Shown here one piece after another: positions 1-38,270 of a stretch of DNA of 64,000 nt. The stretch lies in assembly GCA_025354385.1 (NCBI GenBank), contig JANXMZ010000061.1:12440-76439 (forward strand). The letters are read 5' to 3'. The first letter of the stretch is position 1. Each line of letters begins with the position of its first letter. The notes under the pieces were generated by a model. That model had not been told where the DNA came from. It saw only the letters and a program-made list of their open reading frames with translations, and ran no database searches. A program made the position numbers and the translations under genes. The stretch comes from Bacteroidota bacterium (GTDB lineage Bacteria > Bacteroidota > Bacteroidia > NS11-12g > UBA955).

Positions 1-1
1 G

Positions 2-11676: not shown

Positions 11677-12513
11677 TTGTTATAAAAACTCCAGGAAAAT
11701 ATAACTTTCTCCAAATTATTTACAATACTTGGGAGTGAAATAAACAATCGTTGCAATTACATAAAACAAAAATTTGTTTGGCGATACTTATCAATTCTCA
11801 GATCTTAAAACCGCACTAATTTCAATACCGAAAATACCATTTGTTATAAATACTCCAAATATTAACGGTGCACCCCATCACCTTCCGGGCGCCTTTGACA
11901 AAGTTCATGGGCTAATAAAGGGTCCTACTGCAACCAACCACCCCCAAAATAATTCCTTAGGAAGAACGACATTTGTTATAAAATCTCCAATAAACTATTA
12001 AAATTCAAAATATGAGGGGGATTTCCACCCCAACTCCTACCGGGACACCCCAAAATAAATTTATGAGGTGAGTGCCACCCTACGCCACCCGTTCAATCAC
12101 TTCACTCCAAAGACAAAAGTGAAGCAAAATGCTATTCCACCTGGCATACACGTACCTCTCTGGACACCCCTAAGGTTGTATAACCCTCATTGCCACAATT
12201 TATTATATAAACTCAGAAAGATTTATAAAAGCTCCAAAAAAAGCAGGGCCTCCAATGGCCCACCTACAGCCACCAGTTTAGGTCGAGAGGTAGGGTTGCT
12301 GAATAATAATACCTTAAAACCCAAACTCAATAGAAGGATGAGGGACAAATTAATCACGCCACCACAGTTGCCATTACACTTGTAGTAATAACGTCATTAT
12401 GTTATAAAAACTCCCAAAAAGTATAACTTACTCCAATTTTTAACTGTATAAATTTGCATCGTTGCAACAAAAGTGCAACGTGTTGCAACAAAAAGCAACT
12501 GTTGTTGCGATGC
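11677..12513. repeat. Dispersed TTGTTATAAAAACTCCA-like direct repeats plus a GTTGCAAC palindrome cluster
   Basis: Copies at 11677, 11841, 11973, 12220 (degenerate) and 12399; GTTGCAAC/GCAAC cluster at 12456-12513. Confidence 0.75.
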
Positions 12514-12524
12514 AAAACCACTTT

Positions 12525-12532: not shown

Positions 12533-12613
12533 TAATCCCCTGCTCACAATCTTTGTTTAAGTAGCGCATTAAATTTGGCATTTTGTGAAAAAATATGTAT
12601 TTTTCGCCAAAAT

Positions 12614-13012
12614 TTGAAAAAAGTTTGTAGCATATTGCTGGCATTGATGTATATGGTGACCCTTACAGGGTTCAACATGTCAATTCATCAATGTCAGGGT
12701 AAAACAGCCTTTGCTATATTGGGTATGACCTTTAACAAGTCATGTAATTGTTCACATACTGATGTTAAACATGCATCAAAATGTTGCTCCAATAAAAAAA
12801 TTGTCATTGAGAAAAACACCAAGGACAATTTTTTCCAAAAAGATAATATTATTGTTAAGGCTGCTTCATTGGGATTTAACCCTGCTGTTGCTGACTTTAA
12901 ATTTGATTTCAGTGGTGAGAGTAATCATAATGCTCATTTTTATAATGTAAAAGCACCGCCCGATTTGCATTCCAAGCCCTTATTCCTATTACATAGGGTT
13001 ATTCTTATCTGA
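12614..13012 (+). CDS. HYC_CC_PP-type Cys/His/Pro-motif membrane protein (metal-operon leader)
   Basis: Hydrophobic N-terminus, then HQC, CNCSH, KCC and C-terminal KAPP...LFLLHRVILI; in-frame TTG at 12614 gives an MKK-type start. Confidence 0.8.
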   Translation: MKKVCSILLALMYMVTLTGFNMSIHQCQGKTAFAILGMTFNKSCNCSHTDVKHASKCCSNKKIVIEKNTKDNFFQKDNIIVKAASLGFNPAVADFKFDFSGESNHNAHFYNVKAPPDLHSKPLFLLHRVILI

Positions 13013-13041
13013 TTTTATTTTCCTCCGCTTAAATTTTAATT

Positions 13042-13098
13042 TTTGCTGATTTTCTATCAGCAAACTTTTGTTTTTGGCATATTTCCAAAAACAGAGTT
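13042..13098 (+). terminator. Terminator-like hairpin with competing downstream stem
   Basis: TTTGCTGAT-TTTCT-ATCAGCAAA followed by CTTTTGTTTTT; that T-tract can pair with CCAAAAACAGAGTT at 13085-13098. Confidence 0.5.
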
Positions 13099-13172
13099 AA
13101 AAAATAAGTACTTGACCATGCCTTACATGATTTACTCAATTAAATTGAATACAAAACCATCATTAATATAAA

Positions 13173-14057
13173 ATGAAAAAAATAACTTTTACAATAATCG
13201 CTTTGATGTTCGTTATAACGATTTCCAAAGCACAAATTATCCCAAATTCAGGATTTGAAAAATGGACCAGTATGGGGACCTATAACAATCCTGATTCGTG
13301 GACATGCTTAAACAATATGACAGCAAGTGCAAGTACTTATACCTGCGACAAGGGGACACCAGGAAATAGCGGGGCTGGTTACCTGAAACTTACTTCAAAA
13401 ATGGTTGGCTCCAATGTGGTTCCTGGTGTAGCAGTTTGTGGAACAATTAACACTAAAACCTTTCAGGCGGGTTCAGGTTTTCCTTGTACCGGAAGGCCAC
13501 AGAATTTTACAGGCAAATGGCAACACATGATCTACGGTTCAAGCCAGGGGTTTATTGATATATTGCTTACCCGCTGGGATGCCAATTCCAAGAAAAGGAT
13601 TACAGTGGCTTCGGTCCATGAGGTTTTATCAGGTATGGCTATGAGTTGGGCCGGCTTTTCGATTCCACTCACCTACACAGATGGCAACTCACCTGACAGT
13701 TGTATAATAACAATGTCATCCAGTGGCTCCACCCCTACTAATGGTGATTATTTATGGGTGGATAACCTCGCCTTCACAGGTAGTGTCGCTGGAGTTTCTA
13801 AAAATTATTTTAGTGAAAATATTAGTTTATTTCCAAATCCTTCTTTATCCAATTTGTCGATTGATTTATCTGTTTTAAAAGATCAAAAAGTATCAATACA
13901 GGTAATTGATATGGAAGGGAAGTTAGTGTTAAAAGTTGATGAAATTATAGTATCAAAAGTAATTACACTTGATGTAAGTAGTTTATCTAAAGGGAATTAT
14001 ATATTAAATATAATTTCAAATGACGGTACTATTACAAAAAAAATTATAAAAGAATAA
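13173..14057 (+). CDS. T9SS type A CTD protein (PCMD/carbohydrate-binding-like domain)
   Basis: Signal peptide, IPNSGFEKW...LWVDNLAF, CTD LFPNP...LSKGNYIL...KKIIKE. Confidence 0.85.
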   Translation: MKKITFTIIALMFVITISKAQIIPNSGFEKWTSMGTYNNPDSWTCLNNMTASASTYTCDKGTPGNSGAGYLKLTSKMVGSNVVPGVAVCGTINTKTFQAGSGFPCTGRPQNFTGKWQHMIYGSSQGFIDILLTRWDANSKKRITVASVHEVLSGMAMSWAGFSIPLTYTDGNSPDSCIITMSSSGSTPTNGDYLWVDNLAFTGSVAGVSKNYFSENISLFPNPSLSNLSIDLSVLKDQKVSIQVIDMEGKLVLKVDEIIVSKVITLDVSSLSKGNYILNIISNDGTITKKIIKE

Positions 14058-14063
14058 AATCAA

Positions 14064-14846
14064 ATGAGAAAGCCAATTTACTTATTTATCGCCTTGATGT
14101 TCGTTATAACGATTTCCAAAGCGCAAACTACAGCCATGAATTTCATCAAAAAGGACTGTAACGGTACAATGCACAATCTATTTGCAGACCTTGATGCAGG
14201 TAATGCTGTGTTAATTCACTTCTTCATGCCGAATTGTGGCTCATGCCCTCCACCGGCCCAAAAAATACAGAAAATGGCCAATAATATGATGGGGAAATAT
14301 CCCGGAAAAATTAAAGCTTATGCTATTCCGTATAATAATTCTACAACGTGTAGCTATGCATCTACCTGGGTTAGTTCAAATGGCCTGTCTCTTTACACCG
14401 CATTAGATAGTGGTGCTGCGCAGGTATCCTATTATGGTGGTTTTGGTATGCCTACAGTTGTAATGTTGGGCGGTACTGACCATAAAGTATTGTTTTCTAC
14501 CCTCAGTTTTTCAACCAGTGATACAACAATTATGAGGAATGCGCTAAACACTTTTTTCAGCACATCAGTTATTAATGATGTTAAAAATATTGTTTCTACA
14601 TTCAATGTATTCCCAAATCCTGCAAATGAGAAAATAACAATCACCATAGATTTGAAACAATCGTCTACCCTAATGATTGATATTATTGATATTGCAGGAA
14701 AACAGGTTGCTTTGGTGATGAATGAGAAACAAACAGGAATCCTGACAAAAGAATTCAATATTTCAGCATTGCCAAGCGGTAATTATCTGGTTCGATTGCA
14801 GGTCAATGGAAAAAGCGTTACCCAAAAACTAGACATTGTCCGTTAA
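14064..14846 (+). CDS. T9SS CTD protein with thioredoxin-like CxxC domain
   Basis: IHFFMPNCGSCPPP, GFGMPTVV (cis-Pro loop), CTD VFPNP...GNYLVRL...QKL. Confidence 0.82.
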   Translation: MRKPIYLFIALMFVITISKAQTTAMNFIKKDCNGTMHNLFADLDAGNAVLIHFFMPNCGSCPPPAQKIQKMANNMMGKYPGKIKAYAIPYNNSTTCSYASTWVSSNGLSLYTALDSGAAQVSYYGGFGMPTVVMLGGTDHKVLFSTLSFSTSDTTIMRNALNTFFSTSVINDVKNIVSTFNVFPNPANEKITITIDLKQSSTLMIDIIDIAGKQVALVMNEKQTGILTKEFNISALPSGNYLVRLQVNGKSVTQKLDIVR

Positions 14847-14864
14847 ATTTAACAAATAAGAAAT

Positions 14865-15701
14865 ATGCAAAAGCTCATTTTTTCTGCTTTATCTTTACTG
14901 CTGGTAATTATATTACTTGAGTCATTTGCACCGTTGGAAATCCTGAAAAAGGATGGTGCCGCACCCGGGTACACCGGTTCACCCGGGGATAGTTTAAAAA
15001 ACTGTACTGCCTGCCATGGTGGAAATGCTGAATCAGTGCCCGACTGGGTGACTTCCAACATCCCCATTGAAGGCTATACCCCCGGTAAAACTTATACTAT
15101 AACGGCCACAAACAATGAAGGCGGGGCAACAAGATTTGGATTTGAAGTTTCGCCACAAAATGCAAAAGGAGATTTACTTGGAACAATGGTAGTAACAGAT
15201 GCCATAAAGACAAAATTAGTGGGGACTAATAAGTACATAACTTACACTGAAAATGGGGTTGAAAGCACAAATTTTATGGCATGGTCTTTTGACTGGGTTG
15301 CACCACCTTCAGGTACCGGAGATGTGACCTTCTACGGGGCATTCAATTCTAATTTTGACGGTCATAAATCTGGCGATAAAACCTTCCTTTCTACCTTACA
15401 GGTTTCTGAAAAAGGCACCTCAGGGTTAAAAAACAGTACTGCAAATCCAACTAATTTTAAAATTTACCCCAATTCTACAAGTGATATTGTAAATATAAGT
15501 TTAAATATAAAGGGTAAAGCTAATATAAAGGTGGATATAATTGATTTAACAGGAAAGCAAGTCGCAACAATTATTAATGGCGGTAATGATGGAATGGTAT
15601 TAAAGCAATTTAGTACTGCCGGTTTGCTAAGCGGTAATTATTTGGTTCGCCTGTTGGTGGATGGAAAAGCTGCAACAGAAAAATTAACTGTCAATCATTA
15701 A
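14865..15701 (+). CDS. T9SS CTD protein, Reeler-like (choice-of-anchor V type) domain with CxxCH
   Basis: GYTGSPGD...CTACHGG, GYTPGKTYTIT, RFGFE, WSFDWVAP, then CTD. Confidence 0.82.
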   Translation: MQKLIFSALSLLLVIILLESFAPLEILKKDGAAPGYTGSPGDSLKNCTACHGGNAESVPDWVTSNIPIEGYTPGKTYTITATNNEGGATRFGFEVSPQNAKGDLLGTMVVTDAIKTKLVGTNKYITYTENGVESTNFMAWSFDWVAPPSGTGDVTFYGAFNSNFDGHKSGDKTFLSTLQVSEKGTSGLKNSTANPTNFKIYPNSTSDIVNISLNIKGKANIKVDIIDLTGKQVATIINGGNDGMVLKQFSTAGLLSGNYLVRLLVDGKAATEKLTVNH

Positions 15702-15702
15702 A

Positions 15703-16398
15703 ATGACCTCGTTCAAAAAATTGATCTTATTGGTAACGTTACTTTTGGTGTTTATGGGTATGTCTTTGGGCCAGACATTTTCAAATACCCCAAATGACAG
15801 TATCCAGATGACAGGAATGATGGAGGACTTAGAAACACTTTCCATTCAGCAACTCAATACATCTTCCAAGACCATCACCTTGAAATGGCTTGAAATAAAG
15901 GAGGCAGTTCCTGCAAACTGGGAAGCATCGGTATGTGATAACCAGATTTGCAATACCTCTCTGGTGGATAGCGGAACTATGAATCCTGTTAGTCCTGGTG
16001 AGTATGGGTTGATCCTGTTGCATATTACACCACATGTAAATTACGGCACAGCCACTGTCCGTTATATTGTATGGGATATAGCTAATCCTGGCCTGAAAGA
16101 TACACTTACGTACATTCTATATGTAAACGCAACATCCGGAATCCTGCAAAGTAAAACCAACAATGTTCTGAATATATACCCCAACCCAGTAAAGGATAAC
16201 CTCAATATTATTACAAATCTGTCATCAGTTTTTATTTTTACAGTAACAGATGAATTGGGCAGGGAAATAGTAAAAGGGATGTCTGAAACAAATTCAATCT
16301 GTGTTTCTACAGAAAATTTTGCTTCAGGAATTTACAATGTTTCAATCTATGATAGGGGTGCAATGATAACCAGCAGAAAAATCCTTATACAACCATAG
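15703..16398 (+). CDS. T9SS CTD protein, Ig-like domain
   Basis: Signal peptide, WEASVCDNQIC, CTD IYPNP...GIYNV...RKILI. Confidence 0.82.
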   Translation: MTSFKKLILLVTLLLVFMGMSLGQTFSNTPNDSIQMTGMMEDLETLSIQQLNTSSKTITLKWLEIKEAVPANWEASVCDNQICNTSLVDSGTMNPVSPGEYGLILLHITPHVNYGTATVRYIVWDIANPGLKDTLTYILYVNATSGILQSKTNNVLNIYPNPVKDNLNIITNLSSVFIFTVTDELGREIVKGMSETNSICVSTENFASGIYNVSIYDRGAMITSRKILIQP

Positions 16399-16400
16399 TT

Positions 16401-18116
16401 ATGAGACTTACTGCTTTCATTTTTTTATTTAGCCGGGGGTTGCTGTCCATTGCACAAAATCAATTGGCAATTCCCCCTGTACTGGTGGGTAAAACTTTTA
16501 ATCTGAATGTTCAAAGCGGGACCCAAACTTTTTATGGCAGCAAAGCAACACCCACCTATGGAATTAACGGGGTTTGGATGTCACCGACCATTATAGTCAA
16601 CAAATGGGATAGCATCACTTTGAATGTTAAAAATAATTTAAATGTAAAGACAACAATGCACTGGCATGGTCTGCATGTAGCCCCTCAAAATGATGGTGGC
16701 CCTCATCAGATAATAAACCCTTCCAATACATGGAGCCCTTCATTCAAAATAAGGAACAATGCTTCTACTTTCTGGTATCACCCTCATGGAGCCGGCCAAA
16801 CCGACCCTCAGGTTTCAAAAGGGCTGGCAGGTTTATTGATTGTAAAAGATAGTGCAGAAGCAGCACTCGCACTCCCAAGAACTTACGGAATTGATGATAT
16901 TCCAATTATTGTTCAAAGCAAAGCGTTTGATGATTTGCAACAAATTGCAATTGCCACTGAAATGGATACGGCTTTGTTTGTAAACGGAACCCTTCATCCT
17001 TACTTTAATGCACCTTCTCAGGTCGTTCGTTTTAGATTATTGAACGGCAGTAGTTTAAGGACCTATGATTTTGGATTTTCAAATGGACAAATATTTTACC
17101 AGATAGCCACAGACGGGGGTCTGTTAGACACACCAATTATTATGACAAGATTGGTGTTAAGCCCGGGTGAAAGAGCGGAAATACTGTTGAATTTTTCAGG
17201 ATTATCCGGACAAACCGTTTTTCTTAAAAGTTTTAGTTCTGAATTAAAAAATGGTATTTATGGCTCTAAAAATGTTGGTATTAATAACGATACAATAGAA
17301 GGGTACAATGAAAATTTTTTAAACAGGAAGGATTTTAACCTGTTAAAGATAAATATAATTACTGCTCTGCCCGGGGCAATTACGAAGGTTCCGGTTGCAT
17401 TAATTCCTTACGAACCCTACAATAGTATTTCTGCTACAAAATACAGAAGGATTGTAATGGATACTATCAGGTTGCTTCCAATTGATCCTCCAAGTCGTGC
17501 AGACGGGCCTTTTGGTTTAAACAATAAAACCTTTGATATGGACAGTATCAATGAAATAGTTGGCCTGAATACAACAGAAATCTGGACTCTGGTAAATAAA
17601 ACCCTGGTGGCGCACCCTTTCCATATTCACGATGTGCAGTTTAATATAGTTGAAAAGGGTGGAAAACCTCCCCAGCAATCAGATAGGGGATGGAAAGATG
17701 TGGTATTGGTAATGCCGGGTGATAGTGTAAAATTCATTACAAGGTTTGAAACATTTTCAAACGCCATGGTTCCATATATGTATCACTGCCATTTGCTCCA
17801 TCATGAGGATGACGGAATGATGGGAAGTTTTTTGGTAATAGATAAAACTGCTTCTATAACCAAAGCATATAATTCCTTTAACCGGATAGATGTTTATCCA
17901 AATCCGGCAATGGATCAAATCACTTTACAATTTAAAAGTGAAGTGCAATCGGGAGAAATAACAATATTGAATGTTTTAGGTGAAGTTATTACATCGCAGG
18001 AAGTAAATAATAAAACAAATATAACAATGGATGTTTCAGGACTATATGGTGGATTATATATTATCCGGATAAAATCAAACGATCAACTTTATACCCAAAA
18101 AATAATTAAACAATGA
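16401..18116 (+). CDS. Multicopper oxidase (CueO/laccase-like) with T9SS CTD
   Basis: All four Cu motifs present: HWHG, WYHPH, HPFHIH, HCHLLHHEDDGMM; CTD VYPNP...GLYIIRI...QKIIKQ. Confidence 0.95.
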   Translation: MRLTAFIFLFSRGLLSIAQNQLAIPPVLVGKTFNLNVQSGTQTFYGSKATPTYGINGVWMSPTIIVNKWDSITLNVKNNLNVKTTMHWHGLHVAPQNDGGPHQIINPSNTWSPSFKIRNNASTFWYHPHGAGQTDPQVSKGLAGLLIVKDSAEAALALPRTYGIDDIPIIVQSKAFDDLQQIAIATEMDTALFVNGTLHPYFNAPSQVVRFRLLNGSSLRTYDFGFSNGQIFYQIATDGGLLDTPIIMTRLVLSPGERAEILLNFSGLSGQTVFLKSFSSELKNGIYGSKNVGINNDTIEGYNENFLNRKDFNLLKINIITALPGAITKVPVALIPYEPYNSISATKYRRIVMDTIRLLPIDPPSRADGPFGLNNKTFDMDSINEIVGLNTTEIWTLVNKTLVAHPFHIHDVQFNIVEKGGKPPQQSDRGWKDVVLVMPGDSVKFITRFETFSNAMVPYMYHCHLLHHEDDGMMGSFLVIDKTASITKAYNSFNRIDVYPNPAMDQITLQFKSEVQSGEITILNVLGEVITSQEVNNKTNITMDVSGLYGGLYIIRIKSNDQLYTQKIIKQ

Positions 18117-19573
18117 AAATAAAATTACTCATCGCAATGGTCAGTATAAGTGTTTTTTCTTATGGGCAAAAACCAGTTTCATGGGGTATGGGCATGGATC
18201 TTTCTTCCAATACCTATAGCAATATGCACCCCCGTATGACGTTAGACGGCAAGGGGAACCCTATGTTGGTTTGGGGAAGAATGTCTGATGAAGCTGTTTT
18301 ATTCTCAAGGTGGAACGGCACAATGTTCACCACTCCTGTAAAATTAAATCCCCTGTGGTTAAAAGTGGCAAGTGCTAGCTGGATGGGACCGGATATTGCC
18401 TCGAAAGGTGATACTGTTTACGTAGTGGTTAAAAGGACTCCGGAAGCATCAGACACCAATCACATTTACATTATGACTTCCTTCAACGGGGGTATTTCTT
18501 TCTCATCTCCTGTTCTTGTGGATTTTATTGCCGACAGCGTTTCCCGTTTTCCCACTGTTACTGTGGATGCCACAGGAAATCCCATAGTTGCTTTTATGAA
18601 ATTCAATTCATCCTTCCTTAAATCGAGATGGGTGGTTACCCGGTCCACAGATTATGGCAAAACATTCTCTGCCGATGTAAGGGCTAGCGGTTACAGCGGG
18701 GTAAATGCAGAGGTATGTGATTGTTGCCCTGGTGCATTGGTCACTTCAGGCAGTGTCTCAGCAATGTTGTATAGAGACAACCTCAGCAATATCCGCGATA
18801 TATGGACAGGTATTTCAACGAACAACAATGCATCTTTTAAAAATGGCTTTGCTGCCGATAATACCAAATGGAATATTAATTCATGTCCTTCCAGCGGACC
18901 AGATGGCGTTATTGCGGGAGATTCATTGTATTCTGTCTTCCTGAGTGGGGGAAGTGGGAACTACCGCACTTATTTAAGTAAATCTTCCATCATTAGCGGA
19001 GGTGTAAATTCAGTAAAAAGCCTAACGGGAAATATTGCAGGACTCAGCCAGCAGAATTATCCAAGGATAGCGAATGATGGAAATGCAATGGCCATTGTTT
19101 GGAAACAAACTGTCAGCGGTGGTTCACAACTACCAATTTTATTTACAAATAATCTACTTAAAGGTTTTCCTCCCCAGTATGACACAGTTGATTTAAAAGA
19201 CATTACCAATGCAGATGTGGCGATGAGCCAGGGTAATATTTTTGTGGTTTGGCAGGACGACAACTCGGGAACAGTCAAATACCGTAAGGGTACCTATCAG
19301 CCATTTGTCTCCAAAATAGATAAAATTCTTCAGTCTGATTTTTTGGTTTTCCCCAATCCAGGCAACGAAACCCTTTCCATTCAATTTAATGATGAGATCC
19401 AATCGGCGGAAATAAGAGTGATGAATACATTGGGTGAAATACAGTTTCAAAATTTACTCACATTTACTGCAAATAAAACCATGCTGGATATTTCCTCTTT
19501 AACAAATGGAATTTATATTATTCAATTACAAGTAAATGAAAGGGTGATTACCCGGAAATTTATAAAACAATGA
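18113..19573 (+). CDS. BNR/Asp-box (sialidase-like propeller) protein with CDCC and CPxxGP motifs and T9SS CTD
   Basis: Asp-boxes SFNGGISFS and STDYGKTFS; VCDCC, SCPSSGP; CTD VFPNP...RKFIKQ. Confidence 0.82.
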   Translation: MKIKLLIAMVSISVFSYGQKPVSWGMGMDLSSNTYSNMHPRMTLDGKGNPMLVWGRMSDEAVLFSRWNGTMFTTPVKLNPLWLKVASASWMGPDIASKGDTVYVVVKRTPEASDTNHIYIMTSFNGGISFSSPVLVDFIADSVSRFPTVTVDATGNPIVAFMKFNSSFLKSRWVVTRSTDYGKTFSADVRASGYSGVNAEVCDCCPGALVTSGSVSAMLYRDNLSNIRDIWTGISTNNNASFKNGFAADNTKWNINSCPSSGPDGVIAGDSLYSVFLSGGSGNYRTYLSKSSIISGGVNSVKSLTGNIAGLSQQNYPRIANDGNAMAIVWKQTVSGGSQLPILFTNNLLKGFPPQYDTVDLKDITNADVAMSQGNIFVVWQDDNSGTVKYRKGTYQPFVSKIDKILQSDFLVFPNPGNETLSIQFNDEIQSAEIRVMNTLGEIQFQNLLTFTANKTMLDISSLTNGIYIIQLQVNERVITRKFIKQ

Positions 19574-21159
19574 AAAAAACGTATGGTTTAATACTGATAT
19601 TGGCTTTTTTGAAATTGCAATATTTATGCGCACAAACAGTTACATGGGCGGATGATATTGCCTGTATTACCTATACACATTGCGCAGGTTGCCATAACAA
19701 CCAGAGCAGTTTAGCGGCCTTCCCGCTTACCAGTTATCAGGAAGCTTATGCGCAAAGGAATGCCATGAAATATTATTCAACTTATTTATCCATGCCCCCC
19801 TACCAGCCTAATACAAGGCATCGCAGGTATGTTAATGAAAAGAATATGACCCAACAGGAGATAGGTTTAATTGCAAGTTGGGTAAATTCAGGATGCCCAA
19901 GGGGTGATACTGCAAATGAACCTCCGTTCCCGGTATTTAATTCAATAAAAAGCACAATTCTTTCCCCCGATGTGTCACTAAAGATGCAGGATTATATTAT
20001 TCCTTATAATGGTGTAAATTTTAGGAGATGTTTTATTTTATCGCCTCCCCTCAGTTCTTCTAAACTGATTAAACAAATAGAAGTAATACCCGGAGATCTT
20101 TCTGCCATTTATGCAGTATATGTATATGCAGATACTTCTTCTATTCCAACCCTGTTAGATTCGGCAGGGAGTGGTTATATGAATTTCGGGGGTACGGGAA
20201 GCAATTCTGCTAAACCCTTATATGGATTCGTTCATGGTACCAACCCTTTAAACCTTCCAGGAAATTGTGCATTAAAAATAGATTCCGGTTCAAGATATAT
20301 TATACAGGTGGAATATGCTGAAGATGCAGGTGGTAAATTGGATTCTACCAGATTAAATATAAAATATACCAGGGGTGTCGGCAACAGGGCAATAGAAATT
20401 GGTGCCTTGCTTCACCATGATAAAGACCTGATAAATGGGCCTTTCATAGTTCAACCTGATTCAGTAATTGAATTCCATGAATTTAAAACTCTGAGCAGCG
20501 ATATTACACTATTTAGTGTCAGTCCCAACCTTCACCATATATGTACTGATTTTAAGGTTTTTGCTATTCAGCCTGGCAATGATACAGTGCAAATTTTAGA
20601 AGTTGAAGATCATGGCGAAATCTGGTCTGAAGGGACCTATTTTTCCCAAAATCCTGTGTATTTAAAAAAAGGGACTGAACTGCATGCTATTGCAAATTAT
20701 GATAACACGCTGTCTAATGGAAACAATCCAAATAACCCTCCGTTAACAATTAGTCCCGGTTTTGGTGAAACTGACGAACAAATGGTATTTAATTTTTCTT
20801 ATGCTCCCTATATTACAGGTGATGAAAACATAATTTTGGATTCATTCCCACATCCAAAGCATTATGAAAATTGTACCCCAAAGCATAAAGTTTCCAGTAT
20901 CCCTCCCTGTTTATCTAAAGGCAATAAAATCATCGTTTATCCAAACCCTGCCACTACAACTCTTTGTATAAATCTTCCTGACAGTTGCCTTTCCGCAAAG
21001 CTAACACTTATTAATATGGTTGGTGAGACAGTTTTATCACAGGATATTTCAAATAATGCAAATCCAAACATAAATATTTCAAATATTGATGATGGTATAT
21101 ATATTATCAGACTTAAAACAAACGACATAATAATCACAAATAAATTTATTAAACGATGA
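19570..21159 (+). CDS. Cytochrome c (CxxCH) plus copper type II monooxygenase (PHM)-like fold, with T9SS CTD
   Basis: HCAGCH, MPP, WVNSGCPRGD, RRCF, EVIPG, YDNT..N.NNPNNPP, DEQM; CTD VYPNP...NKFIKR. Confidence 0.82.
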   Translation: MKKTYGLILILAFLKLQYLCAQTVTWADDIACITYTHCAGCHNNQSSLAAFPLTSYQEAYAQRNAMKYYSTYLSMPPYQPNTRHRRYVNEKNMTQQEIGLIASWVNSGCPRGDTANEPPFPVFNSIKSTILSPDVSLKMQDYIIPYNGVNFRRCFILSPPLSSSKLIKQIEVIPGDLSAIYAVYVYADTSSIPTLLDSAGSGYMNFGGTGSNSAKPLYGFVHGTNPLNLPGNCALKIDSGSRYIIQVEYAEDAGGKLDSTRLNIKYTRGVGNRAIEIGALLHHDKDLINGPFIVQPDSVIEFHEFKTLSSDITLFSVSPNLHHICTDFKVFAIQPGNDTVQILEVEDHGEIWSEGTYFSQNPVYLKKGTELHAIANYDNTLSNGNNPNNPPLTISPGFGETDEQMVFNFSYAPYITGDENIILDSFPHPKHYENCTPKHKVSSIPPCLSKGNKIIVYPNPATTTLCINLPDSCLSAKLTLINMVGETVLSQDISNNANPNINISNIDDGIYIIRLKTNDIIITNKFIKR

Positions 21160-22547
21160 AAAAAAATCTAATTTTTTGCACATTGCTAATCGGCATTAGT
21201 GCCAGACCACTGCTTTCACAGCAAAGCATTGATTCGTATGTATTCGACTCAAGTAAAAACATTTTTACCATGATTGCTGCTTCTGGTAGTGGCTTATCGT
21301 CTGCTGTTGATCTCGATTTTTATCCCGATCAATCAAAACGCAGTTTTGAATTATGGATATTAAATCAGGGAACTGCTAATTCAGGCGGAAGTACTGTTAT
21401 TGTTTCCAATGCCAATAAAAGCTCCAGAACCTATAAATATGTAAAAGATGGAAATGCCTACCACTTTATGGCCCTGGCAAGTGCTATAGCTTTTGGTGAT
21501 AGTTTATGGGCTACTAGTGCTGATATATTAGATGCCAATCACCAAACAGGCCAATATACAGGTCCTACATTATGGTCAAGTGATTTAAATATCTATGGCA
21601 TCATTGGCAATCCCAGTTCTTCGCAAGTGAATGGAAGTCATTTGGATATGATTCATCAAAGTCCGTATAGCAAAGGTATTGCGTTTGAAAAAGATTTGGT
21701 CTATTGGGTGTTGGATGGCTTTGAAGGAAACCTGAAAAGATATGACTATGTGCAGACGCATCAACCCGGTGGTTCAGACCATAGCGCAGGTAAAGTGAGG
21801 GTTTATAACGATTTTCAGTTTACCAAACACCCTTCTCTGCCAAGCCATATAGTTATTGATGATAAAAAGAAATATCTATATGGCTGCGACCCTATTGGTA
21901 AAAGGATTTTCAGGGTGGATATTACCTCAGGTTCTGATGCAGGACAGGGTACAAAAGTAAATAATGAACTACTTCAGGAATATGAAGTTTATAGTGGTTT
22001 GGAAATAAAAGATATTGTAACTACAGGTCTGACAAGTCCCGTTGGGATTGATATTTATGGTGACAGGCTTATAGTTACCGATAATGGAACTGACGAAATT
22101 ATTATTTATAATATTTCTGATAATTTCAAAGAGGTAGGCCGGATAAAACTTAAATACATTGCAAAGCCGGACCCAATGGGTTTAAAAGTTGGCCCAGACG
22201 GAAAGATATATTTTGTTGATAAGACCAATAAAAGGGCCTATATGATTGATAATATGAATGTATGGCCTCTTGCAGTGGAAGATACAAAAGCACCTATTGC
22301 ACTACTCGTTTATCCTAATCCTTCCAATGATTATGTTTCTATCCAGAATAAAAATGCCGATATAATTATTCAAACAGTCAATATTACTGATATTTATGGA
22401 AGAAGTGTTTTACAACTTGATATAAATTCAACTGATGAGTTGACTAAAATAGATATTTCCAACCTGGCTTCCGGTCAATATTTAATCACCCTAAAGACGG
22501 ATAAAGGCATTAGCACACAAAAAATAAGTAAATATGACATTCAATAA
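21156..22547 (+). CDS. Beta-propeller protein with His/Met motifs and T9SS CTD
   Basis: HFMALASAIAFG, GPTLWSSDL, GSHLDMIHQSP, NHL-like PVGIDI and PMGLKVGPDGKIYFVD; CTD VYPNP. Confidence 0.8.
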   Translation: MKKNLIFCTLLIGISARPLLSQQSIDSYVFDSSKNIFTMIAASGSGLSSAVDLDFYPDQSKRSFELWILNQGTANSGGSTVIVSNANKSSRTYKYVKDGNAYHFMALASAIAFGDSLWATSADILDANHQTGQYTGPTLWSSDLNIYGIIGNPSSSQVNGSHLDMIHQSPYSKGIAFEKDLVYWVLDGFEGNLKRYDYVQTHQPGGSDHSAGKVRVYNDFQFTKHPSLPSHIVIDDKKKYLYGCDPIGKRIFRVDITSGSDAGQGTKVNNELLQEYEVYSGLEIKDIVTTGLTSPVGIDIYGDRLIVTDNGTDEIIIYNISDNFKEVGRIKLKYIAKPDPMGLKVGPDGKIYFVDKTNKRAYMIDNMNVWPLAVEDTKAPIALLVYPNPSNDYVSIQNKNADIIIQTVNITDIYGRSVLQLDINSTDELTKIDISNLASGQYLITLKTDKGISTQKISKYDIQ

Positions 22548-23268
22548 ACACCTGCAACTTATTATCACCCCACTATACTCTAAAGGAGTATTTATTATCC
22601 TCCTTATTTTGTTTAAATTTAGTGGATTGTATGCCCAGCTTACATTCCCAAATGGAAATTCATTGAATTTAGTAACAAATGTTTCATTTATGTATGAAGA
22701 AACTGTGATTAAATTCCATACAGGTAAATTTAAAGTATCGGATTATAATTGGATGAAAGTTTCTGATTCAATTAATCAAAACTGGTGGGTATCCTCTTGC
22801 TTCAATGGGGAGTGCAAAGGGGATTTGCCTTTTAATGGTGATTTTATAATGGATTACGGATATAATGATACAACTGGATTTATAGCATTCCATGTTAATA
22901 CAAAAGATTCGTCCGGAACTTCTAAAATAGCTTATAGTGTTCAAAATAAATCTGACTTTTCTGATGTGGCCACACTATTTTACACTATTACCTATAATTA
23001 TGTGAACGGTATTATTCATACTTCAAGCCTGCATTTTAAGGTATACCCCAATCCTGTGTCAGATTACTTCGTTCTGGACAATCCAGAAGAGTTAAAGATT
23101 CAGGATATACATGTTTATGATATAATGGGAAGGGAGCAAAAGGTGGAATTAGACTTTTCAAAATCAAATCAAATAGCCATAAATGCAAAAGCCCTTAAAT
23201 CAGGGGTATGGTTCTTAAGTTTTCAAACTGCTGATGGGGTTTATAATCAGAAAATCATTAAAGAATAA
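22534..23268 (+). CDS. T9SS CTD protein, Ig-like domain
   Basis: WWVSSCFNGEC (resembles the 15703 gene), CTD VYPNP...QKIIKE. Confidence 0.8.
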   Translation: MTFNKHLQLIITPLYSKGVFIILLILFKFSGLYAQLTFPNGNSLNLVTNVSFMYEETVIKFHTGKFKVSDYNWMKVSDSINQNWWVSSCFNGECKGDLPFNGDFIMDYGYNDTTGFIAFHVNTKDSSGTSKIAYSVQNKSDFSDVATLFYTITYNYVNGIIHTSSLHFKVYPNPVSDYFVLDNPEELKIQDIHVYDIMGREQKVELDFSKSNQIAINAKALKSGVWFLSFQTADGVYNQKIIKE

Positions 23269-23290: not shown

Positions 23291-23854
23291 ATGTTGGAAA
23301 CATTTCACATAAAAAACATGGTTTGTTTGCGCTGTATAAGGGTGGTGGATGAGGCTTTAAACAGGGAAGGATTCTATGTGAAATCTGTTGACATGGGCTT
23401 TGCTGTTATAGAGACTGAAGCCCTGAACAAAAAAAAACTTTCAAAAGTCCTTAACGACAATGGCTTTGAGTTACTAGAAGGAAAAACTTCCAAACTAATC
23501 AAGGATTTGAAAACCTTTATTGTGCAATTCATACGTTCAGGAAAACTTGAAAATGAAAAGCTGAAATTTTCGGCTGTATTGGAAAAAAAATTCGGGAAAA
23601 GTCTTGGGTATCTGGGCAAACTATACTCCCAGGCAGAAAATAATACACTGGAAAAGTACATTCTGGCTCAAAAAATAGAATATGTAAAAGAGTTAATTGT
23701 TTACAACGAATTGACCCTAACGGAAATTTCATTTCAACTGGGATACAGTAGCGTTACCCATTTAAGCAGCCAATTCAGGCAGGTAACCGGATTTTCCGCC
23801 ACTCAGTTTAAAACATTAAAAAAACATCACCGGAAATCAATTGATCAACTTTAA
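23291..23854 (+). CDS. AraC-family regulator with N-terminal HMA-like (MxCxxC) domain
   Basis: IKNMVCLRC; C-terminal LTLTEISFQLGYSSVTHLSSQFRQVTG. Confidence 0.92.
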   Translation: MLETFHIKNMVCLRCIRVVDEALNREGFYVKSVDMGFAVIETEALNKKKLSKVLNDNGFELLEGKTSKLIKDLKTFIVQFIRSGKLENEKLKFSAVLEKKFGKSLGYLGKLYSQAENNTLEKYILAQKIEYVKELIVYNELTLTEISFQLGYSSVTHLSSQFRQVTGFSATQFKTLKKHHRKSIDQL

Positions 23855-23931: not shown

Positions 23932-24654
23932 ATGAAACATACCTATCAAATAACCGGAATGACTTGTGGAAGTTGTGAAGCTAAAGTGAAAACAGCCTTA
24001 CTTTCCTTACCTGATGTTGCGGCAGTCGAAGTTTCTAAAGAAACAAACCGGGCAATTATCACTATGGATAATCATATCGCCTTACCAGATTTTCAAAATG
24101 CACTTGGGGGAATAAATGCCAAATACCGGATTTCTGCAATTAACCCTATTGAAACTGTTGAAATGGCTAAATCCTGGCTGCATACTTATAAGCCATTATT
24201 GTTAATTATAGCTTTCATTATGAGTGTTTCACTAATTACATCTTCAAATGGCTTAACCCTTAATGCAATGAAATGGATGAACAGTTTTATGGCTGGCTTT
24301 TTCATCGTATTTTCTTTTTTCAAGCTACTTAATCTCAAGGGCTTTGCAGAAAGCTATGCCATGTATGATATTATCGCAAAAAAAGCAAAAGTTTATGGGT
24401 ACCTGTATCCCTTTATTGAACTTACATTGGGTTTTGCATACCTCACTCATTTCAACCCTCTGTTTGTGAATATAGCTACAGTTGTAATTATGGGAATTAG
24501 TTCTATCGGTGTCATTAAAAGTGTATTGGATAAAAGGGCCATAAAGTGTGCCTGTTTAGGTGATGTATTCAATCTGCCTATGAGCACTGTTACTATCATT
24601 GAAGATTTAGCAATGACAGGAATGGCAGTATACATGTTGCTTATAATCAATTAA
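23932..24654 (+). CDS. HMA domain plus MauE/DoxX-like membrane protein
   Basis: GMTCGSC; FAESYAMYD, YPFIEL, CACLG, EDLAM. Confidence 0.9.
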   Translation: MKHTYQITGMTCGSCEAKVKTALLSLPDVAAVEVSKETNRAIITMDNHIALPDFQNALGGINAKYRISAINPIETVEMAKSWLHTYKPLLLIIAFIMSVSLITSSNGLTLNAMKWMNSFMAGFFIVFSFFKLLNLKGFAESYAMYDIIAKKAKVYGYLYPFIELTLGFAYLTHFNPLFVNIATVVIMGISSIGVIKSVLDKRAIKCACLGDVFNLPMSTVTIIEDLAMTGMAVYMLLIIN

Positions 24655-24721: not shown

Positions 24722-25999
24722 ATGAATAAGATAAATGCAAATAATATTTCAGGGTTGATTAAAGCCGGGTTAAATTTTTTATTGAAGATGTTGAAATCAA
24801 TGTTTAAGCACCAGAAATCATGTTGTAAAGTTGTATTGTTTATTTTTACCATGCTTATGCATTCTAATACCAATGGGCAAAAAATGATGACGTTGAAGGT
24901 GATTTTAGACAGCAGTTTCATTTACAGCCCCTCCTTAAAGGCAGCCAACAGCACGATAGAACAGCAACAACAACTTGTTAAATCATCTATCAACCTTCCA
25001 CCGCCAGAAATACTTGTACAAAACCCTACTGGTCAATTTTACACAATTGGTGTGCAACAGATTTTTGATTTTCCTACTATTTATGTTGCACAAAAAAAAA
25101 TACAAAAGGAGAATGTAAAATTAGCTGAAACTGAAAGAAAGTTGACCCAAAGCGATGTAAAATACCAGGTGAGTATTTTGTATAGTGAGTTGCAATACCA
25201 GCTTGAATTAGTGAAACTTTTAAAAAGACAAGACAGTGCGTATCAAAAAATAGCAGAAAATGCAGAAAGGGCCTTTAATGCGGGAAATATTGATTTTATA
25301 CAAGCTAGTTATTCCAAGGTACAGGCAGGACAGGTAAAATCAAATCTCATTTTAGCTGAAGCCAACTATAAAAGCATACTTGAAAACCTTAAAATACTGT
25401 GTAATATCAAATCAGATTTTTTACCTGACAGCATAGTTGTTTATGAGGAGAAAATGATATTTGAGGGGGATACTGGCATCAGTCAAAATAGCTCCATGCT
25501 ATATGTCAGGCAGCAAATTGCAATCAATGAAAGGAAATTGCAATTGGAAAAACAAAAGACCCTTCCGGGCTTTACAGTGGCATTTTTGAATCAGGGAAAT
25601 AAAACAACCATCAATCAGAACAGGTTTTATGCAGGTTTGCGCATACCCTTGTGGTTTTGGCAATACAAAGGCAATATAGAAGCGGCCAGAAGCAAAGTGG
25701 ATGTGAGCAGGTACAATGCAGACGCCAATAGTTTAAGATTAGCTACTGAAATGCAATCGGCCTATACAAAATATGTGGCTTATCGGCAAGCGTTAGGTTT
25801 ATACAGGTCTGATATATTACAACAGGTAGGTTCGCTAACCAATGCTTCCAATCGTTTTTTTGCATCAGGTAATACTTCTTACACCGATTTTCTAAGAAAC
25901 TTAAATGATATTTCTGAAATACGAAAAAACTATCTTTTAACAGTGAAGAACTTTAACCAAACCATTATATATATCGACTATTTAACAGGGAATTTATGA
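24722..25999 (+). CDS. TolC-family outer membrane efflux protein
   Basis: Helical repeats, LPGF..., GLRIPLWF; precedes MFP/RND genes. True start may be a downstream Met. Confidence 0.85.
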   Translation: MNKINANNISGLIKAGLNFLLKMLKSMFKHQKSCCKVVLFIFTMLMHSNTNGQKMMTLKVILDSSFIYSPSLKAANSTIEQQQQLVKSSINLPPPEILVQNPTGQFYTIGVQQIFDFPTIYVAQKKIQKENVKLAETERKLTQSDVKYQVSILYSELQYQLELVKLLKRQDSAYQKIAENAERAFNAGNIDFIQASYSKVQAGQVKSNLILAEANYKSILENLKILCNIKSDFLPDSIVVYEEKMIFEGDTGISQNSSMLYVRQQIAINERKLQLEKQKTLPGFTVAFLNQGNKTTINQNRFYAGLRIPLWFWQYKGNIEAARSKVDVSRYNADANSLRLATEMQSAYTKYVAYRQALGLYRSDILQQVGSLTNASNRFFASGNTSYTDFLRNLNDISEIRKNYLLTVKNFNQTIIYIDYLTGNL

Positions 26000-27681
26000 T
26001 AAGAATAATCAAAACAATAATCATTTTACTTATTTTAACTTTCACCGTTAAAACATTTGCACATGGGGGTGAAGACCATGATATTAAAAAGACAACCACC
26101 ACAACAGCTACGTACTTTTCGACTGAAAACAGTTCTGAAATATACGAAGTATTGATTAAATACGGGGAGCTTAGTGCCGGGGAAGATGCTCATTTTACAC
26201 TTTTTTTAAGCGATGTAAAAACAAATAAGCCTATTGCCAATGCTCAATTGGTAATTGTCAACACTGATAATCCAAATCAAAAAATGGAAGGTAAAATGAA
26301 AGATAGCGGGATTTATGAGTTCAGTGCAAAATTGGAGGACAAAAAAATATATTCTTTTAATGTAAGTATTAATGGCAGTTTAGGGGCGGATTTAATCCAG
26401 GTATCAGGTATTGAAGTTGGAAAAAAATTGCCGCAACCGCTTGAAACAACCAATCAAACTTCAACTGATTTTTTCTCGGCAGGGAACATCGTTACAATTA
26501 TTGTCGCCCTGTTCATCGGTTTATTTGCTGGTTTGTTTTTAAAGCGTAATTCAAAAGCAGGTAAAAAGGTGATAAGTATATTTTTACTTTGCATACTGAA
26601 TGTCTTTCCCTTCTCAAACTTCAATGTTCATGCGCATGGAGGCGAGGAGCATGAAGAAGATAAAAAAGGCAATAATTCAGAATCAGCTCAAATAATAGTG
26701 TCGAAGGAAACCCAGTTTCTTTTTGGTGTAACTACCCTGGATTTGCAAATAGGAAATTTCACACCCTCAATCAATTTATTTGGCACACTTTTGCCCACTT
26801 CATCAGGCAAAGCCGTTGTGCAGACACCGCAAACCGGCATTATAAGTTCACTTAATGTAATTGTGGGCCAAAATATTGCAAAAGGCCAGTTGCTGGCTGT
26901 TGTAGAACAAAATATAGATGCCGGAACCCAAATAAGCTGGCTTACGCAAAAGAACAATTTAAATGCAGAAGTAGCAGCTGCAAAAAAGGAATACGACCGT
27001 TTAAAGTCTATAGCGGACATAGCTGCGAAAAAGGATGTTGATGAAGCTGAAAGGCGATACAATACCGCAGCAACCAATCTGAAGTTATTTGAAAAATCCG
27101 GTGGGAACCAAAACACCAGATTGATCAACCTTTATTCTCCAATAAACGGCAGGCTCGATAATTTTAATTTTTCATTAGGCGCTACGATAAATGCCGGACA
27201 GGATATTTTTACAGTGACAAACCTCTCAAAATTATATGCAGAGGCCCAGGTATTTGATAAGGATGCGGGAGCAGTGAAAAACGGTAAGGAATTTCTTGTA
27301 GAAAGTACAGATAATCTCAGCACACAAAAAGTAAAGTTGCTTACAATGGGTCAAAGCATAAATCCCACCAATCAATCTCAAAAAGTATTATTTGAAATGG
27401 ACAATGAGGATAGTAAATTTAAGATAGGTGAATTTGTAAATATCAGGGTTTTCAGTGAAGCAGGAGCCAGGAATATAGCCATACCAAATTCAGCTATTAC
27501 AGAAATTAATGGGAAACCTGCTGTATTTATAAAGGACGCAGCCGAAAAATATACACTTAGCTATATTTCACCTGGTGAAAATAACGGACAATATACCACT
27601 GTGCTAAGAGGTATAGAAGAAGGTGAAAGGGTTGTTATTAATGGCACTTATCAACTTAAAATAATGTATTTAAACCAATAA
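25996..27681 (+). CDS. RND efflux periplasmic adaptor (MFP) with N-terminal His-motif extension
   Basis: Biotinyl-lipoyl-like GIISSLNVIVGQNIAKGQLL, SPINGR, IPNSAI, GERVVING; two HGGExH motifs. Confidence 0.9.
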   Translation: MIRIIKTIIILLILTFTVKTFAHGGEDHDIKKTTTTTATYFSTENSSEIYEVLIKYGELSAGEDAHFTLFLSDVKTNKPIANAQLVIVNTDNPNQKMEGKMKDSGIYEFSAKLEDKKIYSFNVSINGSLGADLIQVSGIEVGKKLPQPLETTNQTSTDFFSAGNIVTIIVALFIGLFAGLFLKRNSKAGKKVISIFLLCILNVFPFSNFNVHAHGGEEHEEDKKGNNSESAQIIVSKETQFLFGVTTLDLQIGNFTPSINLFGTLLPTSSGKAVVQTPQTGIISSLNVIVGQNIAKGQLLAVVEQNIDAGTQISWLTQKNNLNAEVAAAKKEYDRLKSIADIAAKKDVDEAERRYNTAATNLKLFEKSGGNQNTRLINLYSPINGRLDNFNFSLGATINAGQDIFTVTNLSKLYAEAQVFDKDAGAVKNGKEFLVESTDNLSTQKVKLLTMGQSINPTNQSQKVLFEMDNEDSKFKIGEFVNIRVFSEAGARNIAIPNSAITEINGKPAVFIKDAAEKYTLSYISPGENNGQYTTVLRGIEEGERVVINGTYQLKIMYLNQ

Positions 27682-28896: not shown

Positions 28897-28912
28897 TACC
28901 TCGAAAATTAAA

Positions 28913-29335
28913 ATGTTAAAACTTCAGCCATACTCTTCATCCTTACTTGCATTAGGCGGGTTTGTGCTTATGGCAATGGGTATGTATTTCGTCTTTCTCC
29001 GGCCACCATTATTGCCTGAAGACCTTCACTACATGGATACAACAATTCAAAATGTAAAGGAGGATATTCCCGGTCTCATGCATTGGCTTCAAAAAGTTTT
29101 TTGGGTTATGGGAGCTTATATTTTTACCACTGGGTTGCTGACAGTTTTTATTTCACTTACATCATTCAGGACCCGCGAAAGAGGAACATTTGGTATTGTA
29201 TTGATTTCCGGAATCAGTTCTATTGGATTGATGACCGCTGTAAATTTTATAATCGCTTCAGATTTCAGGTGGGTATTGTTGCTTTTTAACCTGCCTTGGA
29301 CGATTGCATTGATCCTTTACCGTATTCACAAATAA
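28913..29335 (+). CDS. Hypothetical membrane protein
   Basis: About four hydrophobic segments, RPPLLPED motif, within the operon. Confidence 0.75.
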   Translation: MLKLQPYSSSLLALGGFVLMAMGMYFVFLRPPLLPEDLHYMDTTIQNVKEDIPGLMHWLQKVFWVMGAYIFTTGLLTVFISLTSFRTRERGTFGIVLISGISSIGLMTAVNFIIASDFRWVLLLFNLPWTIALILYRIHK

Positions 29336-35176: not shown

Positions 35177-35190
35177 ATTTATTTTATCAG

Positions 35191-35219
35191 TAAAGGGAAC
35201 ATTGTTCCCTTTATTTTTT
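35191..35219 (+). terminator. Intrinsic terminator after the Csp gene
   Basis: TAAAGGGAACA-T-TGTTCCCTTTA followed by TTTTTT. Confidence 0.65.
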
Positions 35220-35239
35220 AATCTTTTATCCTCACACAT

Positions 35240-38238: not shown

Positions 38239-38270
38239 ACTTTTTGCCCTCCCATTTAAACAAATATATT

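Follow-up and report, generated by a model that had tools for sequence, protein, structure and literature searches.

A nine-gene array predicted to be exported by the type IX secretion system, encoded with copper genes on a tRNA-integrated island of a Bacteroidota bacterium

The DNA considered here is a stretch of 64,000 nt from a Bacteroidota bacterium (assembly GCA_025354385.1, contig JANXMZ010000061.1:12,440-76,439, forward strand), referred to in the following as the window; coordinates are those of the window unless a contig is named. Its central feature is an array of nine co-oriented genes, g1 to g9, whose products carry the sorting domain of the type IX secretion system, hereafter T9SS, and include a multicopper oxidase (MCO); the array is preceded by a gene of the HYC_CC_PP family and followed by a regulator, a copper ATPase and a resistance-nodulation-division (RND) pump. 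Related genes are found in similar order in other genomes and in metagenomes. What recurs is a modular cluster and no set system of nine genes, the array described here being the most complete form encountered.

The T9SS array and its cargo

The nine open reading frames (ORFs) occupy positions 13173-23268 of the + strand, with gaps of 6, 18, 1 and 2 bp from g1 to g5 and then overlaps of 4, 4, 4 and 14 bp:

13173..14057, +: g1, T9SS cargo, possibly PCMD-like (C-terminal sorting domain, CTD; Atlas feature match to a PCMD cluster, 0.95)
14064..14846, +: g2, T9SS-type thioredoxin-fold protein with CGSC (alignment A1; profile matches in the PDB)
14865..15701, +: g3, choice-of-anchor V protein with CTACH, T9SS cargo (NF041895, 93 bits, cut-off 42)
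15703..16398, +: g4, small protein, T9SS cargo, CDNxxC pair invariant (alignments A6 and A8)
16401..18116, +: g5, CueO-type three-domain MCO with a T9SS CTD (Pfam Cu-oxidase_3 and _2)
18113..19573, +: g6, T9SS-type sialidase/BNR-like six-bladed propeller with CDCC...CPSSGP (alignment A7; AlphaFold2, AF2; Foldseek)
19570..21159, +: g7, cytochrome c-like CxxCH domain fused to a PHM/DBH-fold domain, T9SS cargo
21156..22547, +: g8, NHL-type six-bladed propeller, T9SS cargo (alignment A4; PDB profile; AF2)
22534..23268, +: g9, g4 paralogue that shares its Cys pair and has a CTD (alignment A6)

All nine products exceed the curated cut-off of PF18962 (35.4-58.4 bits, cut-off 27) and that of the T9SS type A sorting domain TIGR04183 (34.8-56.3 bits, cut-off 23). 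Their N-termini, judged by inspection and not by a predictor, are hydrophobic and signal-like and end in AQ, GQ or SQ, the start of g9 being uncertain. An earlier note on this DNA had listed nine consecutive, co-oriented genes that overlap or nearly abut and that each end in a T9SS type A domain; the coordinates and both domain models bear it out, and together the genes make up a single operon-like unit that encodes T9SS type A cargo. A hidden Markov model built from the ten CTDs of the window and run on the 2890 crudely called ORFs of the 3.67-Mb genome found 151 CTD-bearing ORFs, the longest run of which is the array itself (9 genes, the next runs being 4, 3 and 3). The search for the T9SS machinery covered GldM, for which two matches in the genome are over the cut-off (319 and 303 bits).

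At the start of the array, the signal-peptide stretch ALMFVITISKAQ is identical in g1 (13173-13235) and g2 (14064-14126); since the mature parts of the two proteins are unrelated, this suggests that the 5' ends were exchanged or duplicated recently. A stem-loop of 9 pairs followed by a T-run lies at 13042-13064, between the HYC_CC_PP gene and g1, and could attenuate read-through from the former into the array.

The oxidase g5 carries all four copper-ligand motifs (HxH, HxH, HxxHxH and HCHxxxHxxxxM) and is thus, as had been proposed, intact; the ligands H87, H89, H127, H129, H405, H408, H410, H462, C463, H464, H468 and M473 are invariant in 22 orthologues, and the nearest solved structure is CueO (6evg, 1.2e-74). 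The thioredoxin-like nature of g2 is likewise upheld: C32, C58xxC61, C96, G128-M-P130 and H140 are invariant in the 17 sequences of alignment A1, and the profile matches TlpA/DsbE/ResA-like thioredoxins of solved structure (2l5o, 8.9e-6; 3gl3, 3.8e-5; 4nmu, 6.5e-4). The protein has no Pfam thioredoxin match at E<=0.01; it combines the CxxC, the cis-Pro loop (G-M-P130) and the profile similarity to solved members that mark the thioredoxin fold. The Cys-pair proteins g4 and g9 proved to be paralogues with a conserved CxxxxC pair (alignment A6), and their search against solved structures returned a match of the CTD only.

Two labels given to the small cargo had to be revised. For g3, the assignment to the choice-of-anchor V family is solid, and the similarity to Reeler domains is weak (Pfam E 0.009, under the cut-off); the search of solved structures matched the CTD only, plus a weak F-spondin reeler match (E ~1). 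The CxxCH motif ascribed to both g3 and g7 is present in each, and in g3 C50-H51 is invariant across homologues, the first Cys being found in close homologues only. The name PCMD-like, proposed for g1, has the Atlas feature match as its lead; the cargo part shows no Pfam match and no PCMD domain even at E<=5. Sequence searches of solved structures with g1, g6 and g7 gave nothing useful.

The protein g7 consists of an N-terminal module, in which C38, C41, H42 and M75-P-P are invariant, and a domain of the PHM/DBH family. Pfam records PF01082/PF03712 in 29 of the 41 listed relatives and, at E<=0.01, neither of them in g7 itself. The copper sites of PHM, CuH with three His and CuM with two His and one Met, are represented by HH, H, HxH and M in distant members of the family. 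In g7, HH has become YA, H has become E and HxH has become NxH, so that only the last His and the Met are left; in g7 and its six nearest relatives taken together, HH is replaced by YA, YS or HA, H by E, L or D, and the first His of HxH by N, I, M or W. Because these canonical ligands are replaced, g7 is no intact copper monooxygenase, and its description as PHM-like holds for the family and the fold and not for the copper ligands of this copy.

Both propellers, the Cys-cluster BNR-like g6 and the His/Met NHL-type g8, conform to what had been said of them. The AF2 model of g6 has a predicted local distance difference test score (pLDDT) of 93.5. In the 55 sequences of alignment A7, C204 and C258 are invariant and C202 and C205 nearly so, the conserved set being C202-D-C-C205, C258-P, R221 and R228. 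The family is a large one and highly conserved, with 1039 clusters at 90% identity, of which the best 120 are 63-100% identical and 117 of these 120 carry a CTD; at 50% identity there are 273 clusters with E<=1e-30. The best Foldseek hits of the g6 model are sialidases, at about 10% identity. A search of g6 against a plasmid protein collection found only genes of Ralstonia megaplasmids, 23% identical and in some cases annotated as exo-alpha-sialidase, and no Bacteroidota plasmid; these matches agree with the predicted fold and are uninformative on function.

In g8, six His and one Met (H103, H162, M165, H167, H202, H209 and H231) are invariant in the 54 sequences of alignment A4; its profile matches NHL/Pizza propellers in the PDB (6.5e-14), and the AF2 model has a pLDDT of 93.9. 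In Foldseek searches, neither the g8 nor the g6 model matched anything beyond generic propellers or sialidases (about 10-14% identity), and the hits listed point to no specific enzyme family and do not include PAL, the lyase partner of PHM. The g8 family occurs in three forms: one of ~460 aa with a CTD, one of ~375 aa that is lipoprotein-like and has no CTD, and one of ~680-730 aa with an extra N-terminal domain that starts QCxxGE...TDDYGYE or ...FEEDFE...GW (loci L047-L126). Both g6 and g8 belong to uncharacterised propeller families, with invariant Cys in the former and invariant His/Met in the latter.

The leader gene, the copper genes and the island

The array is embedded in a longer unit with the following features:

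12453..12516, no strand: candidate operator/promoter, imperfect palindrome with TTGCAAC/GCAAC words (inverted repeat I3)
~12527-12534: Bacteroidota-type -7 box TATCTTTG after the palindrome, candidate promoter
12575..13012, +: HYC_CC_PP, small Cys/His protein with a membrane anchor; the unit begins with this gene (NF047658, 42.2 bits, cut-off 28)
23291..23854, +: AraC-family regulator with an N-terminal CxxC domain (HTH_18/HTH_AraC)
23932..24654, +: HMA-MauE fusion membrane protein (PF00403, PF07291; GMTCGSC motif)
24722..27681, +: outer-membrane factor (OMF) and membrane-fusion protein (MFP) of a heavy-metal RND pump (OEP; HlyD_D23/CzcB-type)
27937..29335, +: HMBD/YtkA lipoprotein-like protein and a 140-aa membrane protein (PF19335, PF13115)
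29345..31405, +: CopB-type P1B copper ATPase (TIGR01511, 582.8 bits; CPH at residue 336; His/Met-rich N-terminus)
31406..34585, +: CusA/CzcA-family RND permease (TIGR00914, 818.5 bits)
34850..35704, +: Csp-like Cys-rich four-helix-bundle protein and DUF4396 membrane protein (DUF326; TIGR04401, under the cut-off; PF14342)
37369..39545, +: CTD protein and BNR/sortilin-like propeller, secreted-type, at the end of the island (PF18962; PSII_BNR/Sortilin-Vps10, weak CHU_C)
39665..39740, -: tRNA-Ala(GGC) (ARAGORN)

The HYC_CC_PP protein contains the motifs from which the family takes its name (H-x-C, CC and PP), and H38, C40, C59, C70, C71, P128 and P129 are conserved in 17 sequences. Upstream of its gene, the palindrome and the -7 box (12453-12534) are candidates for the operator and promoter of the unit; the box agrees with TAnnTTTG, the Bacteroidota -7 consensus. 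The GCAAC/TTGCAAC words were rejected as a family-wide operator, as they are not conserved upstream of HYC_CC_PP in 12 related loci. A sigma-70 promoter scan gave 76 sites, not above the 68.1 +/- 8.3 of shuffled sequence, with a consensus that is ill-suited to Bacteroidota. Further upstream, where 1 kb of sequence holds no convincing genes, a motif of ~21 nt (consensus ~CATTTGTTATAAAWMCTCC) is repeated four times, at 11674, 11838, 11970 and 12396 (repeats spanning 11674-12416).

The regulator that follows g9 retains the N-terminal 'KNMVCxRC' in 15 of 15 homologues and is presumed, from this CxxC domain, to be a metal sensor. The earlier note had the array run into an HMA-AraC gene and a set of copper genes; the latter part stands, from the regulator and HMA-MauE through OEP, MFP, HMBD/YtkA, CopB, RND and the Csp-like protein to DUF4396, but no HMA domain is found by Pfam at the N-terminus of the AraC protein even at E<=5. 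The absence of a TonB receptor, also recorded there, agrees with the Pfam scan of 48 window ORFs, which detected none.

What that note overlooked is that the whole copper unit is cargo of an island of ~42.9 kb integrated at the tRNA-Ala gene. The 3' 45 nt of this gene (39665-39710) are the right copy (attR) of a 46-bp repeat; its left counterpart, at contig C8:9277-9322, precedes the window by 3.1 kb, has the same orientation and is identical at 46/46 positions by blastn. Beside it is a tyrosine integrase (C8:9483-10817) with Arm-DNA-bind_5, SAM-like and catalytic domains. Since the direct repeats derive from the 3' end of the tRNA gene and the integrase is adjacent, the locus has the make-up of an integrative island and the copper unit is to be regarded as its cargo; to the right of the tRNA gene the genes are housekeeping-like. 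No conjugation or mobilisation genes were found among the ORFs scanned, and self-transfer is therefore not inferred.

On its left side the island carries a block of defence genes (C8:9483-12439, locus L181, and window 1-11525), made up as follows:

after the integrase: hsdM, type I restriction
447-2111: YhcG-like nuclease
2108-3139: S subunit, type I restriction
3172-4557: GmrSD-like gene
4554-5690: AAA_15/AAA_21 and DUF3696 ATPase
6492-9719: R subunit, type I restriction
10688-11032: HTH_17 excisionase-like gene

A second repeat, of 43 bp and 93% identity, lies just outside both att copies, at C8:8891-8933, ~350 bp left of the left one, and at 39757-39799, right of the tRNA; an earlier insertion could have left it behind, or it could belong to the target region. 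Outside the island there are also a tmRNA gene (51285-51653, -; tag peptide GDNNFAMAA) and a gene for a CTD-bearing protein of 529 aa (48976-50565, -).

Recurrence of the array families

Neighbourhoods in other genomes were labelled by tblastn or blastp with the window proteins after removal of the CTDs (coverage >=0.4 or >=0.5, E<=1e-4 to 1e-6), a procedure that misses copper genes unrelated to those of the window and relies on crude ORF calling (ATG only, longest first); RND matches of 23-33% identity may be non-metal pumps. A full-length, CTD-bearing MCO was found in 14 of 40 relatives, and its surroundings were examined in 12 of these 14 (all except G002 and G025). Other array families lie near the MCO in 7 of these 12 loci, which were fetched through the MCO alone (L011, L012, L014, L016, L018, L024 and L025), and homologues of the AraC regulator, the ATPase, the RND pump or HMA-MauE in 5 of the 12 neighbourhoods. 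At L022 and L023, from another family of the order (G038 and G036), the MCO is flanked by CTD proteins of ~410-540 aa that match no window family; because of these unrelated neighbours, the idea of an array may extend to further cargo families.

Starting from g2, stripped of its CTD, matches were obtained in 19 of 191 genomes of the order. All nine loci whose g2 homologue is at least 40% identical have an HYC_CC_PP gene upstream, and eight have an MCO (at least 52% identity) downstream, the ninth showing a weak MCO-like match; often they also hold g3, g4, g6, g7, g8 or g9, together with a copper ATPase, RND, HMBD, OMF or MFP gene. More distant g2 homologues (27-39%) have such neighbours in 4 of 11 loci. 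The g8 family is widespread, with 410 loci in species-representative genomes, almost all labelled Bacteroidota; near the best 80 of these 410, an MCO was seen 15 times, a copper ATPase 12, an RND permease 20, the AraC regulator 7 and g2 7 times. The g6 family is patchy, being present in only 4 of 300 other genomes of the phylum sample. A metagenome scan with g6 yielded 32 loci; in eight of them the MCO is directly upstream of g6, in the order [HYC] g2 [g3] g4 MCO g6 (brackets marking optional members), followed in several by AraC, HMA-MauE and the copper ATPase.

When the loci are pooled (32 non-duplicate ones, with L125, L053 and L052 removed as duplicates of L014, L031 and L032), the commonest gene directly upstream of the 34 MCO genes is g4 (12/34), and directly downstream g6 (9) and g8 (7) are commonest; the CTD runs reach 6 genes. 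Homologues of g1 adjoin the MCO in L018, L024, L025, L075, L131 and L175. Of 201 Bacteroidia genomes sampled, 110 encode HYC_CC_PP above the cut-off. Among the higher entries of that match list 20 loci were picked by hand, one per genome and thus not at random: 7 lead into an RND pump, 5 continue into an MCO, accompanied by g2 in two cases and by g1 in one, and AraC plus HMA-MauE are present in 6.

These loci show a recurrent modular order: HYC_CC_PP, a g2-type thioredoxin, optionally a choice-of-anchor V protein, a CxxxxC protein and the CueO-type oxidase. The oxidase is followed by optional members, namely the Cys-cluster BNR-like propeller, the cytochrome c/PHM-like protein and the His/Met NHL propeller, and the cluster closes with the CxxC-AraC regulator, HMA-MauE and then a copper ATPase or an RND pump. 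Conserved linkage to copper genes had been set beforehand as the test that could refute the proposal of the earlier note. What was found is that homologues of g1-g4 and g6-g9 recur beside a CTD-bearing oxidase, behind HYC_CC_PP and ahead of the same CxxC-AraC, HMA-MauE and ATPase/RND genes; this is seen in further families of the order, across the class sample and in metagenomes.

Interpretation and comparison with known copper systems

In Gram-negative bacteria, copper defence combines export from the cytoplasm, oxidation in the periplasm and efflux across the envelope. In the reading that we favour and consider fairly probable, the array is a metal-regulated, T9SS-exported module for copper oxidation, copper binding and thiol repair. 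The AraC regulator would sense metal through its CxxC domain and switch the unit on; the array proteins would cross the inner membrane by Sec, fold and be loaded with copper or haem in the periplasm, and pass through the T9SS to the surface or the medium. There the CueO-type oxidase would convert Cu(I), or compounds that reduce Cu(II), to less harmful forms. By analogy with ScsC-type proteins, g2 could bind Cu(I) or repair copper-damaged disulfides, and during its periplasmic passage it may be a partner of HMA-MauE; g4/g9, g6 and g8 might bind or hand over copper, and electron transfer may fall to the CxxCH proteins g3 and g7. In combination with the CopB-type ATPase, RND pump and Csp-like protein, such a set would take copper defence beyond the cytoplasm and periplasm, to the outer side of the outer membrane. 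The unit, moreover, shares an integrative island with defence genes, as resistance cargo usually does.

Several points weigh against this reading. The array appears tied to copper by synteny, and its expression, secretion, copper response and copper chemistry are predictions from sequence. The linkage is itself incomplete: no other array family accompanies the MCO in 5 of the 12 loci (L019-L023), none of the expected neighbours was seen at 7 of the 11 distant g2 loci, no other window homologue near g8 in 37 of the best 80 loci, and the MCO is missing in 7 of the g6 metagenome loci that have at least 3 kb of upstream sequence; the pooled counts are biased because the loci were fetched through array members. 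Typically, CueO has a Tat (twin-arginine translocation) signal and, covering the T1 site, an insert that is rich in Met and binds Cu(I). In g5, residues 270-373 hold 1 Met and no such insert, and the score against the CueO equivalog NF008205 is 351.5 bits, under the cut-off of 525, so that cuprous oxidase activity is not assured; by inspection, its N-terminus also shows no Tat-type twin arginine. With five of the six canonical PHM copper ligands gone, g7 is catalytically degenerate; g2, if displayed at the surface, has no obvious reductant; and the modelled fold of g6 with its conserved Arg would suit a glycosidase-like enzyme as well as a metal binder. The T9SS-exported surface copper system of the earlier note thus keeps the strong synteny in its favour, with the corrections that it is modular, that its PHM-like member is degenerate and that copper binding by the propellers and small proteins would follow from their conserved residues only.

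A bolder form of the favoured reading is put forward tentatively, its chances being somewhat less than even: the unit may be a horizontally mobile, previously unrecognised layer of copper defence outside the outer membrane, whose exported ensemble would oxidise and trap copper at the surface under the control of a new CxxC-AraC metal sensor and HYC_CC_PP. The ensemble would be made up of the CueO-type oxidase, a Cu(I)-binding or disulfide-repairing thioredoxin, two new propeller families with metal sites and the small CxxxxC partners.

It has also to be considered that the surface oxidase set acts on an external substrate, such as phenolics/humics, Mn(II) or Fe(II), and that the copper genes supply the oxidase and protect the cell, the CopB-type ATPase feeding the periplasm and the Csp protein storing copper. 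The same features of g5, no Met-rich insert and a score under the equivalog cut-off, would make it more laccase-like; T9SS cargo is often degradative, and the CxxCH proteins (g3, g7) and glycosidase-like folds (g6, possibly the PCMD-like g1) fit a substrate-attacking secretome. We nevertheless regard this alternative as unlikely, since hallmarks of resistance are present in the RND pump of the heavy-metal efflux (HME) type with its OMF and MFP, in the exporter of CPH type and in the CxxC regulator, HYC_CC_PP heads efflux operons in 7 of the 20 sampled loci, and the integrative island that carries the unit also carries defence genes.

Acquisition of scarce copper, caught by the surface proteins and passed inward, has a possible precedent in MopE, a secreted copper-binding protein of methanotrophs to which such a role is ascribed. 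The invariant His/Met/Cys sets of the exported proteins and the Csp-like storage protein encoded nearby are compatible with it, as is the statement of the earlier note that HYC_CC_PP genes often precede TonB receptors; at L161 and L162 a gene for 668 aa comes after HYC. Acquisition is nonetheless improbable here, as the linked transporters are exporters and no TonB receptor or importer is among the 48 window ORFs scanned. Finally, that unrelated T9SS cargo genes are merely co-located, hitch-hiking on the island, is very improbable: the array differs in composition among genomes, several families also occur alone, and CTD genes, of which the genome has 151, often cluster, but the same gene order is met in families of the order, in genomes sampled across the class and in independent metagenome contigs, stop and start codons overlap, and the next-longest CTD run of the genome is 4.

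The copper-defence reading can be set against known systems. Like the Cue/Pco/Cop determinants, in which a CueO or PcoA/CopA oxidase goes with a P1B ATPase and CusCBA, the unit has a CueO-family oxidase with all its ligands beside a P1B ATPase for copper and an HME-RND pump that has its OMF and MFP. The array oxidase, however, is predicted to act outside the outer membrane, because of its T9SS CTD, rather than in the periplasm; it has neither the twin arginine nor the Met-rich insert and is accompanied by eight more exported proteins; the regulator is of the CxxC-AraC type instead of MerR or a two-component system; and the Pfam results for the window include no PcoB/C/D or CusF homologues.

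A thioredoxin-fold CxxC protein within a copper determinant recalls Scs (suppressor of copper sensitivity) systems, where ScsC thioredoxin-like proteins reportedly bind Cu(I) and aid copper resistance (PMC8900818, PMC5524982). Unlike ScsC, g2 resembles TlpA/DsbE/ResA-like structures more closely, shows two additional invariant Cys as well as one invariant His, and carries a CTD for export; no partner of the ScsB/DsbD type was seen, HMA-MauE being the sole candidate membrane partner. The MauD/MauE pair, which acts in the maturation of methylamine dehydrogenase, offers another parallel, with a TlpA/DsbE-like thioredoxin (here g2) and a MauE-family membrane protein in one unit; differently from that pair, MauE is here fused to HMA, the thioredoxin is T9SS cargo and there are no methylamine dehydrogenase genes. 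With the PHM/DBH family, g7 shares relatives that carry PF01082 and PF03712 and distant members that retain the ligands, whereas g7 and its six nearest relatives have replaced five of the six, and an N-terminal cytochrome c-like CxxCH/MPP domain and a CTD are added.

In concept, a counterpart is CopM of Synechocystis, an exported protein that makes the cell resistant to copper and is suggested to bind the metal extracellularly (PMC4335983). It is encoded beside an HME-RND pump and lowers the copper load (PMC4335983); here the export route is the T9SS and the proteins are nine instead of one, and the likeness is conceptual, with no sequence relation expected. As for the mobile element, 46-bp repeats at a tRNA 3' end, an Arm-DNA-bind_5 integrase, an HTH_17 excisionase-like gene and cargo for defence and resistance are features of tRNA-integrated Bacteroidota islands, from which this one differs in having no conjugation or mobilisation genes among the ORFs scanned.

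The earlier note knew of no description of such a T9SS copper module, and none was found in the full-text literature, whose coverage leaves out most subscription journals. T9SS and MCO were named together only in two genomics papers on Flavobacterium psychrophilum, in one of which an MCO is listed among accessory or genomic-island genes (PMC8400371). What is new is an exported layer added to a known determinant of MCO, ATPase and RND pump. If the favoured reading is true, an extracellular step would be added to copper defence and the T9SS would gain a role in metal homeostasis, while HYC_CC_PP, the g6 and g8 propellers and the choice-of-anchor V proteins would receive a first biological context. 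Since an integrative island carries it, the unit may serve to spread tolerance of copper in habitats exposed to metals, and the array proteins would be candidates for surface-displayed metal binding or oxidation in biotechnology. For the phylum, the finding suggests that some Bacteroidota handle copper outside the cell.

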